Shown here: positions 15,140-29,366 of the stretch, piece by piece
How the letters are laid out: each line of letters opens with the position of its first letter
Position numbering within the stretch: position 1 is the stretch's first letter
NCBI RefSeq assembly: GCF_000284455.1
Contig: NC_017039.1
Location: 2,100,001-2,132,000 of the forward strand
Direction: 5' to 3'
DNA: 32,000 nt
Source of the DNA: Synechocystis sp. PCC 6803 substr. PCC-P
GTDB lineage: Bacteria; Cyanobacteriota; Cyanobacteriia; Cyanobacteriales; Microcystaceae
Notes under the pieces: model-generated
Seen by the model: the letters and a program-made list of their open reading frames with translations, nothing else
Databases searched by the model: none
What the model was told of the DNA's origin: nothing
Position numbers and translations under genes: made by a program

Positions 15140-16041
15140 AGTACACATTGCTCAGCACTATAGGGCAGAAAACATTGTTGTCCCTCCAGACGAATGATAA
15201 TTTCTGGGGGCACTCCATGGTTCATTAAGGAACGCAAAAGATTAAGTTTTTGTTGACTGTTTTCTTCCGTTTTCAACTCCTGAAAGATTTTTTGGCGATC
15301 GCCAGGGGATAAATAACCTTTGCCCTGTTCTATGGCCTTGACCAATCTTTGGGGCCCCACCTGGACCATGTGCAAAAATTCCCTTAATGCCTGGTAGATA
15401 TTATCTAGACTTTGTTGCTCATACGGCCAGGTTTGTAATTGCTGGACTCCTGCGGCATGGTGACGGGCTTCAGCGGCTAAAAATCCCTGTAACGTTGCTT
15501 GCAGATGATTGTCCCGACAATGGTGTGCCAGGGAACGGTAATGGCTCAGCCCCCAACCCTCTAGCACTACCTGCACCATAGTTAGTAACAGGGCTTTATC
15601 GTCGGCTTCCAATAATTGCCCCATAAAAGATAAAAAACTATCCTGATTAAACTCTGGCTTTTGCTGAAAAAATTGTTCAATTTGGCATAAATGTTGCGCT
15701 TCATCGGCGGCAAATAAACTGTATAAAATTCGTTCTTCACAGGTTTCTGCCAACAGTGACATTTTAGCCATATAGCCCATGCCGGCCTGCTCCACCCAAT
15801 AAATTTCCGTCAGCAAGTCCTGGTTGGCGATCGCCAAAATTGTTGCCTGTTCCACGGCGCTGGCCTGTTGAAATATGGTGACTTGGTTTAAGCCAAAATA
15901 TTCGGCGGGCCAATATAATTTCTGGGTCAAATCAAGAGTTTCCTCCTCCCTCGGTCTATCCAGAGCAGAGGCAAAAATCCGATGCAGGCGATCGCCGGAG
16001 GCAAGGGAAGGTAAATTAAAGCCACTAACAGTTTGTGCCAT
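15136..16041 (-). CDS. Ferritin-like di-iron carboxylate protein, function unknown
   Basis: 301 aa. It has two exact copies of the E-x29-E-x2-H motif (WVEQAG...AADEAQH and VLEGWG...AAEARHH), the classical four-helix-bundle di-iron ligand set. The ATG at 16041 overlaps the upstream gene's 3' end by 17 nt. Confidence 0.7.
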   Translation of the reverse strand: MAQTVSGFNLPSLASGDRLHRIFASALDRPREEETLDLTQKLYWPAEYFGLNQVTIFQQASAVEQATILAIANQDLLTEIYWVEQAGMGYMAKMSLLAETCEERILYSLFAADEAQHLCQIEQFFQQKPEFNQDSFLSFMGQLLEADDKALLLTMVQVVLEGWGLSHYRSLAHHCRDNHLQATLQGFLAAEARHHAAGVQQLQTWPYEQQSLDNIYQALREFLHMVQVGPQRLVKAIEQGKGYLSPGDRQKIFQELKTEENSQQKLNLLRSLMNHGVPPEIIIRLEGQQCFLPYSAEQCVL

Positions 16042-17131
16042 GGATTTTTACACTTCCATTGTGGTTATTTATTACCGGGACAGACAAAGATTTGTCTTCA
16101 TCTAGTGATTGCCAAGTTTCCCACTGGAGAACAGGTTGTTGTTCCAGATGGTGAATAAATTCAAGAATTGATTTATCTTCTGCTAAAGGTGTTTTAAGCG
16201 CAAATTTAATTGTCTGAAAAATTTTTGTATCTCCCTTAGCAAAGTAATTACCCACCAGTTTAGTTAGCCAAAGAATGATGCCGTTAATAAACCAACCCCA
16301 AAGCCCAGGGCGATGCTTAGTCAACAAAATTGTTTGCCCTTCCGTTTGCCCATTTTTGCCTAAGCGCAGGGTAAACATAATATAAAAATGTAAAAAATCT
16401 GGCCCCAAAGTTACCGTTCCCGTACTGCCAAACCAATAGGATAAATTATAGGTACCTGCTTCCCGATAAAAGGGTTTAATCAAACGCACTAAAAGGGAAT
16501 CATTCCCCCCCTTGGTAGTGTTAGCAAAATTAATGATATTTTGATCAATAACCTCGGATTTAAAGTCAATTTCCACCGGAAAATTATGTACCGTATTGAA
16601 GTGGTGGGCATCGATGGCATTAACCATCACCACATTGGGATGGCAAGCTTTTGTAAAACTTTTACCCAACGCACTGACTACTTTTTCCTTGGTCAACTCT
16701 AGGGGCAGAGGCAAAGTTTGACTAGGTTGATTCCCAGTCCAGAGCCAAATTAAACCATAGGCTTCCGTCACGGGCCAGCTATTAACTTTCACCGGCAATG
16801 ATTTAGCTAAACAGGGTACTTCCACACAATGCCCATGGTGATCAAATCGCCAATTGTGGAAAAAACAACGTAAACTTTCCTCCTCCACTTTGCCCTCGGC
16901 CAAATGGGCTCCCATGTGGGGACAATAGGCATCCACCGCCACTACTTTGCCACTGTCAGTGCGATAAACCGCCAAGTCTTTACCTAGTAAAAATACTGCC
17001 TTAACTTGGCCTCGTTTTAATTGTTTTGAGCGCAGCAACCAGTACCAACCGGCCACGAAGCGCTGGGGCTGATTAAACACTTTGGCGGAGTTCGGTTTAG
17101 GCAGAAAGACCACGGTGGTCAGACCAATCAA
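16025..17131 (-). CDS. Rieske [2Fe-2S] non-heme iron oxygenase, alpha-subunit type (KshA/VanA-like architecture)
   Basis: Rieske motif C-P-H-x16-C-x2-H (CPHMGAHL...CFFHNWRF; Cys98 codon at 16922-16924). Mononuclear iron motif D-x2-H-x4-H (NAIDAHHFNTVH). The ORF is open to a GTG at 17215 (396 aa), which would overlap the upstream gene by 88 nt. The TTG at 17131 overlaps the upstream TGA as TTGA and gives 368 aa. A GTG at 17113 is also possible. Confidence 0.8.
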   Translation of the reverse strand: MIGLTTVVFLPKPNSAKVFNQPQRFVAGWYWLLRSKQLKRGQVKAVFLLGKDLAVYRTDSGKVVAVDAYCPHMGAHLAEGKVEEESLRCFFHNWRFDHHGHCVEVPCLAKSLPVKVNSWPVTEAYGLIWLWTGNQPSQTLPLPLELTKEKVVSALGKSFTKACHPNVVMVNAIDAHHFNTVHNFPVEIDFKSEVIDQNIINFANTTKGGNDSLLVRLIKPFYREAGTYNLSYWFGSTGTVTLGPDFLHFYIMFTLRLGKNGQTEGQTILLTKHRPGLWGWFINGIILWLTKLVGNYFAKGDTKIFQTIKFALKTPLAEDKSILEFIHHLEQQPVLQWETWQSLDEDKSLSVPVINNHNGSVKIHGTNC

Positions 17132-17847
17132 TTCAAGATATTTACAGCATAGCTGGAATGCCAAATTCTTAGTCCCGCTTTGGTCAAATTTTCCGTTGAC
17201 ACTTCCGCCAAACACACCAACTCATCCCCCTGGATATGGCCGGGGTTTTTTTGTAAAAAGAATTCCACATGGCGATCGCCTAATTTTTCCGTTGGCACCT
17301 GGCGCAGGTTAGGGGTTAATACTTGGGGCTGGGGTAAGCGCACAATGCCCAAACTAGGATCGTAGTTGGCTTGGAATTTGTTCTGGGCTAGCTGATGGAT
17401 AAAATTTTGTACAGGCGGGGGAGTGGGATGGAGATAGTGGGGATAGAATTCCTTGGCAAAAATGCTCAAAAATCGGTAGGTGCGATAGCCGGAAGAAATC
17501 AGGAGCCAATATAATTTTTCTGGCCTAGCCTCGTGGAGAATTTGCATGGCCTTGGTCCAAGCCTTGGCCAGGGCTGGGTTAGACCACATGGATGGGTCGG
17601 TGATGGTGTCACCAGAATAAACAATTCTGACGGTTTGTCCTTCCCATTGAGCAGGGTAGAAACCAAAGGTGGTGAAGCCTTTCAATATCCCAGCGGATTT
17701 GAGCAAAATCACCCAATCTTTGCCTCCTAGGTCAGCTTGAAACTGCGGCCAATGAACCCCCTCAAAGTGGGTTTGGAGCAATGCCAACATCAACCTTTGG
17801 TCAGCATCGGGGATTTGGTCGGCGGGCAACAGAAAGGCTTCGATCAT
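17128..17847 (-). CDS. Conserved-looking hypothetical protein of about 240 aa. An alpha/beta acyltransferase-like fold is only a weak guess.
   Basis: The ORF is open from a TTG at 17886 (252 aa), and the first ATG is at 17847. It has no TM helices and no motif I recognise. Its position between desD and the Rieske gene, with short or overlapping junctions, supports it being real. Confidence 0.55.
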   Translation of the reverse strand: MIEAFLLPADQIPDADQRLMLALLQTHFEGVHWPQFQADLGGKDWVILLKSAGILKGFTTFGFYPAQWEGQTVRIVYSGDTITDPSMWSNPALAKAWTKAMQILHEARPEKLYWLLISSGYRTYRFLSIFAKEFYPHYLHPTPPPVQNFIHQLAQNKFQANYDPSLGIVRLPQPQVLTPNLRQVPTEKLGDRHVEFFLQKNPGHIQGDELVCLAEVSTENLTKAGLRIWHSSYAVNILN

Positions 17848-17893
17848 AGATTTACGAGGGATTTTGCCATTTTGCTTCAATCCCAAGGCAATG

Positions 17894-21823: not shown

Positions 21824-21930
21824 TCCACAGTTTGACTTAGCTATGACATTGGCATTTCAAAGTATCTAATTAATGCGGTGGGGTTGATTCTAACTTCACC
21901 GTTTTCATCTGTTCTTGCAAAAATTAAAAA

Positions 21931-22800
21931 TTGTTTGAGGGAAAAATTTTGCAAGTTACCATTAACCAAGCTAAATCTATCCTCAATAAAGCTACTGGTT
22001 TTATTCAGGACTACGATTTCACCCTCAATCCCTATCGTGGTTGTCAGTTCGGTTGTGACTATTGTTATGCTTCGGCCTTTAGTCCCAACTCTCAACTAAG
22101 GGCTAATTGGGGAGATTGGGTAATGGTAAAAGAAAATTCAGCAGAATTATTGGTGAGTGAACTAGAGAGAATTAGTAAAAAATATGACCGTCCGATTCGG
22201 ATCTATATGAGCAGTGTGACCGATCCCTATCAACCAATTGAAAAAGAAGTACAAATAACAAGAAAAATTCTCGAAGTATTAGTTAAATATCAACCCATAC
22301 TAGTCTTACAAACCCGTAGTCCCATGGTTGTGAGAGATATTGATCTTTTAGGTCAATTTCACAAGCTGAGAATTAATATTAGTATTCCCACCGCTAGCGA
22401 AAAGGTGAGAAAAGATTTTGAAAGTCGCTCTCCCAGTGTTAAAGCTCGCTTACAAACAGTGGAAAAACTCAGACATCAACTTCCTTCTGATGACAGTTAT
22501 CAAATTAAATTTGCCATTACCATGACCCCCCTGTTACCGTCCTATGATGAAGATTTACCCCAGTTTATTGAACAATTAGCCACAGTTGACAGGATAGTTA
22601 TACAGCCATTTCACAGCAGTAAAAATCAATCTTTAAAAGCTTCCACTCCAGCCAAAGCTATAGAATTAAAAGAAAAATATCAATGGTGGTATGTAGATGA
22701 AGATAAGAATTATCATAATCTATTCAAAAAATTAGAGTTACTCAATCAATACTATGGTGTAGAAATTTTTGAAGGCAGAGAAGGTTTTGGCTATGATTAA
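21931..22800 (+). CDS. Radical SAM enzyme, SplB/COG1533 ('DNA repair photolyase'-like) family
   Basis: 289 aa. The family-typical N-terminus is KSILNKATGFIQDYDFTLNPYRGCQFGCDYCYA, containing the CxxxCxxC cluster motif. No in-frame ATG follows the stop at 21922-21924, so the start must be the TTG at 21931 or the TTG at 21949. The gene is very AT-rich. Confidence 0.8.
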   Translation: MFEGKILQVTINQAKSILNKATGFIQDYDFTLNPYRGCQFGCDYCYASAFSPNSQLRANWGDWVMVKENSAELLVSELERISKKYDRPIRIYMSSVTDPYQPIEKEVQITRKILEVLVKYQPILVLQTRSPMVVRDIDLLGQFHKLRINISIPTASEKVRKDFESRSPSVKARLQTVEKLRHQLPSDDSYQIKFAITMTPLLPSYDEDLPQFIEQLATVDRIVIQPFHSSKNQSLKASTPAKAIELKEKYQWWYVDEDKNYHNLFKKLELLNQYYGVEIFEGREGFGYD

Positions 22801-24073
22801 TCCGATCAAGGCTGTCAAAGGCTTATGGCAGTTAAAAATCATAAAATCTGAAATTGCTCGCGGCAATACCAAACTAGCCCAACACTTAATTTTAGCCAGA
22901 AAAAAGCAAGGTTATAGGCTAACTCTTTTAGAAAAGTTATTTCTAGAAAATCAAAACTATCAAGCAAAAGTCCGGCAAGCTACTGACTATATATTTCAAC
23001 AAAGCTCATCAGTAATTCAGCAAAAATTTCCGATAAAAAAACAGCTAATACAGCAAGTCAGCCAATCTTTTCGCTTAATTGACCATGACGGTTACAAAAT
23101 CGAATGTACGGGTATTAAAACTTCAATATTTGCAAAATTAGAAACTGAGTTAGTTCATTTTCTGGAAAAAATCATTGCCGATAGTGGATTAAATGATAAT
23201 GAAGCCAAGAAAAAAATAGACGAAGCCCATCGAGATTTAAATGGGTTGAAAAAGGGACTAGATCCAACCTATGACAAAGCCTTTAGCCCCCATGTGTACT
23301 TAATAAAATATTTTTTGGACAATGTTTATTGTAGCTATCTCGCCTATTTTTTTATTTATCAAGCTGGATATCTTCCCAAAAATATTACGATTCTTGATAT
23401 TGCCGCCGGCCCAGCTACAATGCTATTCGGTTTATCTTTATTTCTAGAATCTTTAGCTCAACATCAAGAAATTAGTGATTTTAATTGCTCTTATTATTCT
23501 CTAGAAAAGGAACGTAATTTACAATACCGAGGCCTACAATTTTGGCGACAGTACATTAACGAACTTAAATTCCCGCCCAATATTTTTTATCAATTCAATA
23601 CAGTCAATATTTTTGATTATGACAACTATCGCCATAAACTACCGAAGGAATTTTTTAATTTGATTATTATTGCCCATTGTTTTTTCTACCAAGGGGAAGA
23701 TAGAAGTAAATCTTTGGATATTTATCGATCAATTTTCAAGCAATGTTTAGAACCGGATGGAAAAGTTCTATTGGTTATCCAAGGCAATAAATTTTATAAG
23801 ATGTTTGACACTTATCCTGATGAAAATTTAGCGAAGGAGAGAGATTTAATCAAATCATTTTTAGATTGCCTCGGTTTGCGATTGATCCTTTATAAATATT
23901 TTACTTCAACTGGCAAAAGAACCAATAACAAGGAAGACTTCAAGCAATTTATCCAAGGGGATCTGCCGGAGCGTCCCCAAATTTCCAAACTGCAAGAAAA
24001 GTACTTCGGTTATTCTTCCATGAGTAAATATATTATTGATGACTTTGTTATCTATGCAGAGAAACAAGTTTAA
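22793..24073 (+). CDS. Class I SAM-dependent methyltransferase (Rsm22-like motif context) with an unknown N-terminal domain of about 190 aa
   Basis: SAM-binding motif I is ILDIAAGPATMLFGL, followed by NLIIIAHCFFY and DGKVLLVI strands. The ORF is open from a TTG at 22769. The ATG at 22793 overlaps the radical SAM stop codon region (ATGATTAA, 8-nt overlap). The gene is AT-rich and Lys/Asn/Ile/Phe/Tyr-rich. Confidence 0.75.
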   Translation: MINPIKAVKGLWQLKIIKSEIARGNTKLAQHLILARKKQGYRLTLLEKLFLENQNYQAKVRQATDYIFQQSSSVIQQKFPIKKQLIQQVSQSFRLIDHDGYKIECTGIKTSIFAKLETELVHFLEKIIADSGLNDNEAKKKIDEAHRDLNGLKKGLDPTYDKAFSPHVYLIKYFLDNVYCSYLAYFFIYQAGYLPKNITILDIAAGPATMLFGLSLFLESLAQHQEISDFNCSYYSLEKERNLQYRGLQFWRQYINELKFPPNIFYQFNTVNIFDYDNYRHKLPKEFFNLIIIAHCFFYQGEDRSKSLDIYRSIFKQCLEPDGKVLLVIQGNKFYKMFDTYPDENLAKERDLIKSFLDCLGLRLILYKYFTSTGKRTNNKEDFKQFIQGDLPERPQISKLQEKYFGYSSMSKYIIDDFVIYAEKQV

Positions 24074-25416
24074 TTATCTGTTTCAGACTCTTCCTCCGTT
24101 GTAGAAGAATCCTCCGGCAGTTGATTGACTAATACTTTATCAATACGGATACCGTCCATATCCACCACTTCTACTCGGAGAGTATCGGAAACAAAATAAT
24201 CACCGGATTGAGGAATTTTGCCCAAGCTTTCGATCACAAAGCCGCCGAGGGTATGGTAGTGGCCTTCCTCTTCGTTGGAGAGGGTTTCAATGTCAAAAAT
24301 TTCCTTAAATTCATCAATGGGCAGTAAGCCATCGAGCAGGTAGGAACCGTCTTCCCGTTGAATGATTTGGGGCTCTTGAATTTCGTCGTCATTGGGGATA
24401 CTTCCCACGATCGCCTCGATGAGGTCGTTTAGGGTGACTAGGCCTTCAATGCCACCATATTCATCCGTAATTAGGGCCAGGTGGGTACCGGAAGCCCGGA
24501 ACATTTCCAACACATGGAGAGAGCGGGTATTTTCCGCCACAAATAGGGGCGGCTGAACAATTTCCTCCAGGTTGATTTTTTGTCCTGACCACTGGCTATT
24601 GAGAATGTCTTTGACCCGGACAAAACCTAGGCACTCGTCCAGACTATCCCTACCCACGGGAAAACGGGAATAGGGTGTGTCCAGAATTTCCTGTTGGTTT
24701 TCTTCCCAGTCCGACTCCACATCCAACCAGGCGATCGCCGTGCGGGGAGTCATCAAAGTTTTAACGGGGCGGTCCCCCAAGCGAAAAACCCGTTCCACCA
24801 TTTCCTGCTCTGCTTCATCAATCATGCCGGCCTGGGCCCCCTGCTCGATCATGACCCGGATTTCCTCTTCCGTGATCGGGCTAGCTTCCTTACTGGTAAT
24901 ACCAAATAGCCGTAGTACTGCATCGGTGGAGACCCCCAAAAGATAAACTAGGGGCGCTGTCAACTGGGCTACTAAATGCATCGCCGGGGCCACTCCACAG
25001 GCAATGTGTTCCGGATGGCTGAGGGCAATGCGCTTAGGCACCAACTCCCCCACCACCAGGGATAAATAGGTAATGAACCCCACCAACAGAGAAATGCTCA
25101 GGGGGCCGGCATAGGGGGCTAAGAGGGGAATATCGTCCAAAAACTCCGCCAGACGCAGGGCCACCGTTGCTCCCCCCACCGCACCGGTTAAAATGCCAAT
25201 CAGAGTAATGCCAATCTGCACCGCCGACAGAAAATTATTGGGGGCTGTGGCCAGCTTCAGTGCCAGCTTTGCTTTGCGATTACCCCGCTTTGCCAACTGT
25301 TCCAAACGAACTTTACGAGCTGAGACTATGGCAATTTCCGAGCCAGAAAAAATTCCATTTAACACCACCAAAACGAAGATGAAAAAAAGTTCCAGCTCAA
25401 CAGAAGAGGAAAACAT
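24070..25416 (-). CDS. CNNM/DUF21 - CBS pair - CorC_HlyC domain protein (TlyC/'hemolysin' family, putative divalent cation efflux)
   Basis: 448 aa. It has an N-terminal DUF21 membrane domain (LNGIFSGSEIAIVSARKVRLEQLA), a CBS pair and a C-terminal transporter-associated domain (GGFVIESLGKIPQSGDYF...VEVVDMDGIRIDKVLV). An acidic tail follows. Confidence 0.88.
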   Translation of the reverse strand: MFSSSVELELFFIFVLVVLNGIFSGSEIAIVSARKVRLEQLAKRGNRKAKLALKLATAPNNFLSAVQIGITLIGILTGAVGGATVALRLAEFLDDIPLLAPYAGPLSISLLVGFITYLSLVVGELVPKRIALSHPEHIACGVAPAMHLVAQLTAPLVYLLGVSTDAVLRLFGITSKEASPITEEEIRVMIEQGAQAGMIDEAEQEMVERVFRLGDRPVKTLMTPRTAIAWLDVESDWEENQQEILDTPYSRFPVGRDSLDECLGFVRVKDILNSQWSGQKINLEEIVQPPLFVAENTRSLHVLEMFRASGTHLALITDEYGGIEGLVTLNDLIEAIVGSIPNDDEIQEPQIIQREDGSYLLDGLLPIDEFKEIFDIETLSNEEEGHYHTLGGFVIESLGKIPQSGDYFVSDTLRVEVVDMDGIRIDKVLVNQLPEDSSTTEEESETDN

Positions 25417-28931: not shown

Positions 28932-29366
28932 ATGAAAAACCAACTTTACGAAACGGATTTTGTACGGTGGACAGAAGAACAGGCACAATATATTCAACAA
29001 AATGACTTGGAATCCATTGACTGGCAAAATATTCAGGAAGAAATAAGTGCCTTGGGTCGCAGTGAAAAACATGAGCTAGAAAATCGTCTTGAAGTTCTCC
29101 TGGAGCATCTGTTAAAACGAGGCTATATCAATAGCGCTTACGATAATCGTGGCTGGGAAATTACTATTAAAGAACAACGAAAGAAAATTCGACGGTTATT
29201 ACGAGATTCCCCTAGTTTAAAGAATTACGGCGAGGCCTTAATTCCAGAAATCTGGCAGGAGGCACGCTCTGATATCCAAGACATTTATCCGACTACTCCA
29301 CTGCCCACAATCAATCCATTTGGTGAAAGTTTGGATCAATTATTAACGGTTACTTTTTGGCAATAA
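28932..29366 (+). CDS. DUF29 family protein
   Basis: 144 aa. LYETDFVRWTEEQAQYIQQNDLESIDWQNIQEEISALGRSEKHELENRLEVLLEHLLK is the DUF29 signature. This multi-copy family is abundant in cyanobacteria. The gene is AT-rich. Confidence 0.85.
   Translation: MKNQLYETDFVRWTEEQAQYIQQNDLESIDWQNIQEEISALGRSEKHELENRLEVLLEHLLKRGYINSAYDNRGWEITIKEQRKKIRRLLRDSPSLKNYGEALIPEIWQEARSDIQDIYPTTPLPTINPFGESLDQLLTVTFWQ

Follow-up and report, generated by a model that had tools for sequence, protein, structure and literature searches.

Spore photoproduct lyase (SPL or SplB; TIGR04070/PF20903) is a radical S-adenosylmethionine (SAM) enzyme of the COG1533 type that acts on DNA as a lyase. In brief, it carries a CX3CX2C motif near the N-terminus, uses as hydrogen-atom donor a cysteine outside this cluster motif (C141 in Bacillus subtilis) and has no obligate methyltransferase-fold partner. 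To our knowledge it is the only member of COG1533 whose reaction is known. Here we analyse a stretch of 32,000 nucleotides from Synechocystis sp. PCC 6803 substr. PCC-P (contig NC_017039.1, positions 2,100,001 to 2,132,000, forward strand), referred to as the window, and in it a pair of overlapping genes. The first, A, encodes a radical SAM protein and is presumably slr0285, and the second, B, is slr0286. We suggest, with a probability of roughly 0.4, that A and Slr0286 form one two-subunit SAM-dependent enzyme that acts on DNA, in repair or in modification. Complex formation, the DNA substrate and the entire chemistry are what we infer. The suggestion builds on the obligate pairing of the two genes, the SPL and methyltransferase folds of their products, a sister clade in which the partner is fused to a helicase, a further clade located in Ada operons, the basic and soluble nature of both proteins, and the SOS regulation of COG1533 SplB genes in several phyla (PMC8565304). 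The two genes are laid out as follows, with positions counted from the first letter of the window.

21931-22800, plus strand: open reading frame (ORF) A, 289 aa from the first TTG, with the stop codon TAA at 22798-22800; contains NPYRGCQFGCDYCYA.
21949-22800, plus strand: radical SAM gene, SPL-like and COG1533-type, 283 aa from TTG 21949.
22042-22065, plus strand: the [4Fe-4S]/SAM motif CX3CX2C, read from the sequence as C38-QFG-C42-DY-C45 in the 289-aa numbering.
22793-24073, plus strand: slr0286 (ORF B), 426 aa from ATG 22793; contains ILDIAAGPATMLFGL.

The true start of A is probably TTG 21949, giving a protein of 283 aa, because GAGG is found 8 nt upstream and the Synechocystis homologues are annotated from MQVTINQ. 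A is a member of the radical SAM superfamily (Pfam Radical_SAM PF04055; E 5.5e-15, 56.4 bits, cut-off 29.5). The cysteines C38, C42 and C45 are invariant among 27 cyanobacterial homologues, where they are the sole invariant cysteines, and the triad is also invariant when aligned with the non-cyanobacterial relatives. No H-donor cysteine beyond the triad is therefore evident in A. The C-terminus is conserved as EG(K/R)EGFGY(D/E). For the AlphaFold2 model of A (predicted local distance difference test score, pLDDT, 85), the best Foldseek match in the PDB is SPL (4fhg/4fhc; E 7e-11, TM-score 0.63-0.64), followed by RlmN (3e-6), Elp3 and MoaA, and from this model A is predicted to have an SPL-type fold. 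An earlier reading of this DNA, made without database searches and called here the sequence-only reading, had described A as an SplB-like radical SAM protein. The Pfam and PDB matches bear this out.

Among the curated families, the PA0069 family (NF033668; 134 bits, cut-off 360) and the Rv2578c family (NF038135; 87 bits, cut-off 430) give the best profile matches, and the N-terminal 200 residues of A are collinear with them. The match to PA0069 covers profile positions 36-240 of 348. Radical SAM mobile pair protein B scores 90 bits (cut-off 410) and SPL (TIGR04070) 25.8 bits (E 4.6e-6, cut-off 400). All these scores are far under the cut-offs, and A accordingly belongs to none of the families. 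A works like the SPL, PA0069 and Rv2578c proteins, but it is not a member of those families. The PA0069-like proteins extend approximately 30 aa further than A at their C-terminal end, and in a neighbour-joining tree of the radical SAM proteins they are the outgroup. We found an Slr0286-like partner in none of the sampled loci of the PA0069 and Rv2578c families. Compared with SPL, A likewise has a CX3CX2C motif near the N-terminus but only marginal sequence similarity, is approximately 55 aa shorter, has no sporulation context and comes with an obligate methyltransferase-fold partner.

A described system of similar layout is the radical SAM mobile pair (TIGR04470/TIGR04471), in which an SPL-like protein also has a fixed partner and which gives a weak profile match to A. 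The partner there is, however, a second radical SAM protein or TcmP, the three-Cys-motif partner, which is dissimilar to Slr0286. A TcmP gene adjoins a distant radical SAM relative in Haladaptatus, and TcmP was tried as a relative of Slr0286 and rejected (hhalign Prob 0.1%). Ophion, a radical SAM defence system known from the literature, is built from other components, namely PHP and PRTase. In the literature searched we found no description of a system made up of a radical SAM protein, UvrD and a methyltransferase.

The product of slr0286 is, over 99-100% of its own length, 99, 85 and 73% identical to Synechocystis proteins. NCBI/UniRef lists the homologues at 85% and 73% as 'Slr0286 family photosystem II assembly protein' and the one at 99% as 'hypothetical protein'. 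Judged by full-length orthology at the sequence level, B is a member of the Slr0286 family. Two features of its C-terminal part are needed for what follows.

23390-23419, plus strand: methyltransferase motif I, ILDIAAGPAT, with D202, G206 and T209 invariant.
23504-23506, plus strand: the invariant acidic E238, where beta-2 ends (YYSLE), placed by conservation and predicted secondary structure.

In class I methyltransferases the acidic residue at the end of beta-2 binds the ribose of SAM. In the helicase-fused relatives described below, motif I of B aligns to DLGAGTG and the equivalent of E238 is D (VDSSP). The AlphaFold2 model of B (pLDDT 87, predicted TM-score 0.79) starts with an N-terminal helical hairpin. 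Next come a long helix, in the part of the protein where the family has a variable coiled coil, and a helical segment that is specific to the family, and then a seven-stranded Rossmann fold, with strands and helices alternating from residue 197. Foldseek gave 152 matches in the PDB at E<=1e-3, and the best 50 of the 152 are nearly all class I methyltransferases (best 2.8e-8). We predict from the model that B folds as a class I SAM-dependent methyltransferase in which the SAM-binding residues are intact. The class I SAM-binding motif claimed by the sequence-only reading is in this way supported by the fold matches and by the invariance of motif I and E238. The same reading had called the context of this motif 'Rsm22-like', and here the result is different. 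We found no Pfam match to PF09243, and METTL17 (8csp_7) is only at rank 38 among generic methyltransferase fold matches, so the fold of B is not specifically Rsm22-like.

Scans of B against Pfam, NCBIfam and PADLOC gave no match. A Pfam scan of 30 members of the B family gave, among the 25 families listed, only the generic Methyltransf_23, Methyltransf_31 and Methyltransf_25 of methyltransferase type. Solved structures searched by sequence with profiles of both the A and the B families gave nothing meaningful. The Slr0286 family is small and sharply bounded, as 132 of 1.84 billion cluster representatives are matched at E<=1e-3, approximately 30 of the 132 over the full length. Homologues of A and of B number hundreds each. 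With the Pfam match of A, the two confident models and the recurring overlap described below, this speaks against a chance arrangement of ORFs. It should be noted that some Slr0286 homologues (P0258, P0244, P0246, P0247, P0251, P0253, P0257 and P0260) are 480-690 aa long, with variable Q/E-rich and partly repetitive coiled-coil insertions. These are located between the N-terminal helical hairpin and the core, which suggests a stalk or a dimerisation element. The long homologues were also considered as fusions to a radical SAM protein (Rosetta stone), and this was rejected since they contain only coiled-coil expansions and no extra domains.

The two genes are joined by a conserved junction.

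22780-22784, plus strand: Shine-Dalgarno-like GAAGG, within the conserved C-terminus of A and 8 nt before the B ATG.
22793-22800, plus strand: the 8-nt overlap ATGATTAA, which holds the B ATG and the TAA stop of A.

A scan of one genome per species gave 220 genomes with a relative of Slr0286. The loci were found by pattern-based scans and the best 80 of the 220, which are from cyanobacteria or metagenome-assembled genomes, were taken. In every one of the 81 other loci examined, the gene immediately preceding the Slr0286 homologue in the same orientation is the radical SAM gene. Lack of conservation of the pair as neighbours, named in the sequence-only reading as a finding that would speak against it, was not seen. 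At least 79 of the 82 loci retain the 8-nt overlap with TATGANTAA at the junction, and together with the complete adjacency this makes the pair an obligate unit. A Shine-Dalgarno-like tetramer is found 5-20 nt before the B ATG in 65 of 80 loci. From the sequences of these junctions, A and B are predicted to be translationally coupled, and on this the sequence-only reading, which had pointed to the overlap of the ATG with the stop codon, was right. We found no other universally conserved neighbour of the pair among the 81 loci. Where ureD/A/B and groEL are located beside it, this is lineage synteny within the Nostocales.

Both protein families are basic, with median isoelectric points of 9.1 and 8.7, and no transmembrane segment or signal peptide was found in either family. 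Soluble, basic proteins without a transmembrane segment are unlikely to have a direct role in the thylakoid lumen. We consider it plausible, at somewhat less than even odds, that the pair consists of a DNA-type radical SAM enzyme of COG1533 and its obligate methyltransferase-fold subunit.

The closest non-cyanobacterial relatives of A, full-length and collinear, form two groups. In the neighbour-joining tree, the sister clade of A comprises Runella slithyformis (Bacteroidota), where the gene is located on a conjugative plasmid, and six metagenome contigs. The radical SAM proteins of this clade are 39-45% identical to A over the full length. As in A/B, the radical SAM gene comes first and overlaps the gene of its partner, but the overlap is 4 nt (ATGA) and not 8 nt. 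The partner is a protein of 800-930 aa with an unannotated N-terminal domain of approximately 320 aa and a C-terminal superfamily 1 (SF1) helicase of the UvrD/PcrA type. Helicases of this type act on DNA. Unlike Slr0286, the helicase-fused partner has no N-terminal hairpin and no coiled coil.

The N-terminal domain of the partner is, as judged by profile comparison, homologous to the core of Slr0286. An hhalign alignment with Slr0286 residues 116-335 gave Prob 96.3% and E 1.9e-9 over 209 columns, and it spans the family-specific LKxGxDPxYD...PHVY...Y upstream of motif I. The control, a generic Methyltransf_23 protein, gave Prob 6% over 19 columns. Plain hidden Markov model searches between Slr0286 and the partner domain cross-matched in both directions. 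The helicase-fused pairs, each with a 4-nt overlap, are located as follows on the contigs collected here.

L085:4929-8242: radical SAM gene and helicase-fused partner.
L096:4920-8248: radical SAM gene and helicase-fused partner.
L117:4914-8551: radical SAM gene and helicase-fused partner.
L098:4890-8155: radical SAM gene and helicase-fused partner.
L175:7042-9761: radical SAM gene and helicase-fused partner.

In contrast to the cyanobacterial pair, the helicase-fused pairs are mobile and patchily distributed and, like the non-cyanobacterial pairs in general, they are not AT-rich relative to their flanks. One adjoins a HipA toxin gene and IS21 on the conjugative plasmid, and another is located on a conjugative transposon of the Bacteroidota type. 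Further pairs of the sister clade adjoin a Type ISP restriction-modification enzyme, an N6/N4 DNA methylase and a Schlafen/DUF2075 helicase. Other radical SAM genes in the clade are directly followed by a gene for a stand-alone partner, 231-352 aa in length. In PADLOC, the helicase-fused pairs gave only generic GajB/DRT-helicase matches. We speculate that they may constitute an uncatalogued defence or DNA-protection system. A search with the profile of the partner N-terminal domain gave only 37 proteins, and their source names include candidate division WOR-3 and Nitrosopumilus.

Two loci of the sister clade deserve mention for their organization. On a metagenome contig (L110:2515-6467) ligA, encoding NAD-dependent DNA ligase, a radical SAM gene and a stand-alone partner of 231 aa follow one another in this order on one strand. 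In another locus (L174:5954-9870) the helicase-fused pair is split into fragments by two DDE transposase genes of identical length, and appears degraded.

The next clade is formed by Bacillales, with radical SAM proteins that are 34-39% identical to A. They are collinear with A over the full length and share with it LNPYxGCxFxCxYCY, SSxTDPYQPxE, QTRSP and the C-terminal GF. They differ from A in having no Slr0286-like partner, and the gene preceding them encodes a 2-oxoglutarate (2OG)-Fe(II) 'Oxygenase-NA' (PF09859). Bacillus sp. DX3.1 and Brevibacillus laterosporus have operons in which adaA, ogt and the PF09859 gene come in this order and the radical SAM gene closes the series. On a plasmid of Staphylococcus saprophyticus the radical SAM gene follows the PF09859 gene and is located beside genes for a DNA glycosylase and an Ada Zn-domain protein and beside ogt. 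In two metagenome contigs, adaA is found directly upstream of the radical SAM gene. The Ada-type contexts of the Bacillales gene, which belong to DNA alkylation repair, are the following.

L088:2977-5789: radical SAM gene in an Ada-type context.
L089:2922-5792: radical SAM gene in an Ada-type context.
L086:4275-5792: radical SAM gene in an Ada-type context.

We regard the Bacillales radical SAM gene as a candidate O2-independent counterpart of oxidative DNA dealkylation. The proposal of the sequence-only reading that the pair modifies nucleic acid gains support from the UvrD-fused partners and from the Ada-operon, restriction-modification and mobile contexts of the relatives, while the DNA substrate is the part that we still infer.

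We propose the following mechanism. A and B would be made in fixed proportion from the overlapping gene pair. The SPL-like subunit would cleave SAM reductively on its [4Fe-4S] cluster, and the 5'-deoxyadenosyl radical so formed would abstract hydrogen from a base that is damaged or modified. A second SAM would be bound, together with the nucleic acid, by the methyltransferase-fold subunit, which would either recognise and present a methylated or alkylated base or methylate the radical-processed product. We prefer a version in which the enzyme directly reverses or processes alkyl (methyl) damage on bases without depending on O2, because of the clade found in Ada operons. The effect of slr0286 alleles on the water-splitting site of photosystem II (PSII) would be indirect. 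A more far-reaching claim, which we place on the doubtful side, is that the pair together with its helicase-fused and Ada-operon relatives would add to SPL a second kind of radical SAM enzyme for the repair or editing of DNA. Such an enzyme would be O2-independent and would remove or rewrite methyl or alkyl groups on bases, guided by a methyltransferase-fold 'reader' subunit, and the PSII label of Slr0286, now 25 years old, would reflect a secondary effect of this activity.

Several observations weigh against the reading of A and B as a DNA enzyme. The DPPY-type motif of DNA amino-methyltransferases is absent from B, and the motif after beta-4 resembles those of small-molecule or RNA methyltransferases. 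The radical SAM proteins of the Ada operons come without an Slr0286-like partner, which makes the argument for alkylation second-hand. The cyanobacterial partner, in turn, has no helicase, so that there may have been a change of function once the lineages had diverged. The tree of the radical SAM proteins is a neighbour-joining tree without bootstrap support. We found an Anabaena-type LexA box upstream of the radical SAM gene in none of 79 loci. As tabulated in a 2025 review, the experimental evidence on Slr0286 concerns PSII only and not DNA (PMC12658273).

The table of this review places Slr0286 under PSII with the keyword 'D2 folding' and cites Kufryk & Vermaas 2001 (PMC12658273). In the literature searched we found nothing on slr0285, and slr0286 surfaced only in this one review table. 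The sequence-only reading knew of no characterised system that pairs these two types of enzyme. This has to be modified, as B is Slr0286 and was studied genetically in 2001, while the pairing itself is apparently undescribed. The link of the fold and context of Slr0286 to a radical SAM partner is apparently new to the literature. Two codons of slr0286 are relevant to the genetic work.

22916-22918, plus strand: codon of R42, residue 42 being R when counted from ATG 22793.
23972-23974, plus strand: codon of R394, residue 394 being R when counted from ATG 22793.

We take these two residues to be the suppressor sites (R42M and R394H) of the 2001 study. In that study, Kufryk and Vermaas reportedly mapped second-site suppressors of D2-E69Q to slr0286, as R42M and R394H, and deletion of slr0286 is said to have altered the properties of the water-splitting site. 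Deletion in the wild type reportedly left photoautotrophic growth intact.

The base composition of the pair differs from that of its surroundings.

21900-24100, no strand: GC trough over both genes, 33-36% GC against 48-52% in the flanks.

The GC content at third codon positions (GC3) is 0.29-0.30 in the two genes and 0.49-0.57 in the neighbouring genes. The sequence-only reading had taken the pair for part of a probably foreign island, which our comparisons contradict. In S. salina (locus L002) the pair is located between the same genes, and the flanks are 91-96% identical. The tree of the radical SAM proteins follows taxonomy, with Synechocystis grouping with Merismopediaceae and the cyanobacteria forming one clade. 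GC3 of the pair is lower than that of the neighbours in 78 of 81 cyanobacterial loci (means 0.27 and 0.36). As this low GC3 is shared across the cyanobacterial loci, where inheritance looks vertical, and absent in the non-cyanobacterial relatives, it characterises the cyanobacterial clade as a whole. A search of the flanks for direct or inverted repeats that would mark an insertion gave only short chance matches in AT-rich DNA. We found no mobile-element genes near the pair in the window, and searches of plasmids, phages and viral contigs for Slr0286 gave no match save three marginal ones of 70 aa. The cyanobacterial pair is single-copy. By their sequences, the neighbours look like genes for a fatty-acid desaturase, a TrkA-like protein, a CBS-domain protein, rpsP and a type III glutamine synthetase. 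Based on the synteny with S. salina, the lack of repeats and mobile genes and the low GC3 in 78 of 81 loci, we conclude that the pair is not a recently acquired genomic island despite its atypical composition.

Amino-acid identity to S. salina is 73% for B, 89% for A and 91-96% for the flanks. The rate of nonsynonymous substitution (dN) is 0.17 for B and 0.02-0.06 for the others, and the synonymous rate (dS, NG86 method) of slr0286 is saturated. The divergence of B is highest in the N-terminal helices and the C-terminal tail. R42 and R394 both lie within fast-evolving stretches of the gene. At the nucleotide level, positions 22826-23275 and 23876-24025 of slr0286 are 61-70% identical to S. salina, compared with 85-95% in the flanks.

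Fast evolution of B relative to its neighbours speaks for an anti-phage or anti-plasmid immunity module, or for a self-marking DNA-modification module, that has become fixed in cyanobacterial chromosomes. The AT-richness of the genes relative to the host genome points the same way, and so do the relatives that are found on a conjugative plasmid with HipA and IS21, on a conjugative transposon, or beside the Type ISP enzyme, the N6/N4 DNA methylase and the Schlafen/DUF2075 helicase. We nevertheless find such a module unlikely. PADLOC-DB 2.0 gave no match to B and only the generic PDC-M30B and PDC-M41B for A (E ~3e-4), and the helicase partners matched no more than generic entries. The cyanobacterial pair follows taxonomy in a single copy, keeps its syntenic site among housekeeping neighbours, and no copies were found on plasmids, phages or viral contigs. 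The anti-phage role raised by the sequence-only reading is for these reasons not upheld for the cyanobacterial copy. A modification of tRNA or rRNA, installed by radical chemistry and then methylation as in wybutosine or with Elp3/Trm9, could act on PSII by way of translation, for example if the mutant psbD codon were decoded differently. Such a translational route would explain a suppressor under which the E69Q codon itself stays unchanged. Two proteins that act on RNA, RlmN and Elp3, are the second-tier fold matches of A, the fold matches of B include cap N7 methyltransferase, Bud23, RlmA, NSun6, METTL17 and Trm9, all RNA methyltransferases, and both proteins are basic. SPL is, however, much the best structural match of A, the partner domain of the sister clade is fused to helicases that act on DNA, and the relatives adjoin ligA, restriction-modification genes and Ada operons. 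No RNA-binding domain of the PUA, THUMP or S4 type was detected in the Pfam scans of the window proteins and the B family. We consider an RNA substrate quite unlikely.

That the pair is a dedicated PSII biogenesis factor, which would modify, in the cytoplasm, a cofactor or the precursor of a PSII subunit (e.g. D2) and thereby act directly on assembly of the Mn4CaO5 site, is very unlikely in our judgement. It has in its favor the genetic link of slr0286 to PSII, as given in the review table citing Kufryk & Vermaas 2001 (PMC12658273), the NCBI family name, and R42 and R394 at the expected positions. Against it stand the solubility and basic charge of both proteins, which have neither signal peptide nor transmembrane segment, and a homologous module in non-phototrophs (Runella and, by source names, WOR-3 and Nitrosopumilus), where it is mobile and fused to a DNA helicase. 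Growth of the deletion strain, as reported above, also argues against a direct role. The family is found in approximately 220 species genomes and does not look like a core PSII factor; the named matches include no picocyanobacteria, Microcystis or Thermosynechococcus, an absence that was not rigorously tested. Synthesis or tailoring of a small molecule (a cofactor, lipid or natural product) we regard as highly improbable. Many of the top fold matches of B are small-molecule methyltransferases, such as TmtA, GtmA, histamine N-methyltransferase and the SABATH enzymes, and B has many invariant aromatic residues, but we found no biosynthetic gene among the conserved neighbours. The helicase fusions and the DNA-repair contexts of the relatives do not fit a small-molecule pathway either, and A is SPL-like, unlike the biosynthetic radical SAM families.

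The annotation 'PSII assembly protein' goes back to a single suppressor study and has by now been carried into cyanobacterial genomes by the hundreds. If the pair is indeed a DNA enzyme, this annotation comes into question, and Slr0286 as the methyltransferase-fold partner of an SPL-like enzyme would change which experiments make sense. For a second chemistry in the large COG1533 family, testable substrates, e.g. alkylated DNA under anoxia, would be suggested by the pairings, which involve a methyltransferase-like partner, a helicase fusion and adaA-ogt-oxygenase operons. The helicase-fused version on a plasmid and a conjugative transposon would be a candidate for an uncatalogued defence or repair system.

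At its 5' end (21931-21951), the Synechocystis radical SAM gene has a TTG start, and its product is without the N-terminal extension of approximately 20 aa (KYEGY...REKFG) of other cyanobacteria. The TTG start, the missing extension and the AT-rich codons suggest that A is expressed at a low level. A 12-bp inverted repeat around the TTG start (21914-21925/21944-21955) was considered as a translational hairpin and rejected, as its folding energy is no better than that of shuffled sequence (z 0.13) and S. salina retains only part of the repeat. In the regions preceding the radical SAM gene, an HLR1-like motif was found in none of 79 loci, and the NtcA motif GTA-N8-TAC in four of 79, which is at chance level.

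Elsewhere in the window, an Rfam scan over the whole length matched no family. An ORF of 144 aa (28932-29366; MKNQLYETDFVRWTEEQ...) has a GC content of 0.39 and a GC3 of 0.34 and is located in a second GC dip at approximately 28.5-29.5 kb. It presumably resembles a DUF29-type cyanobacterial protein. At 16025-17886, two minus-strand ORFs of 396 aa and 252 aa overlap by approximately 90 nt (17128-17215) when read from their first possible starts. The true start of the 396-aa ORF is probably located further downstream.

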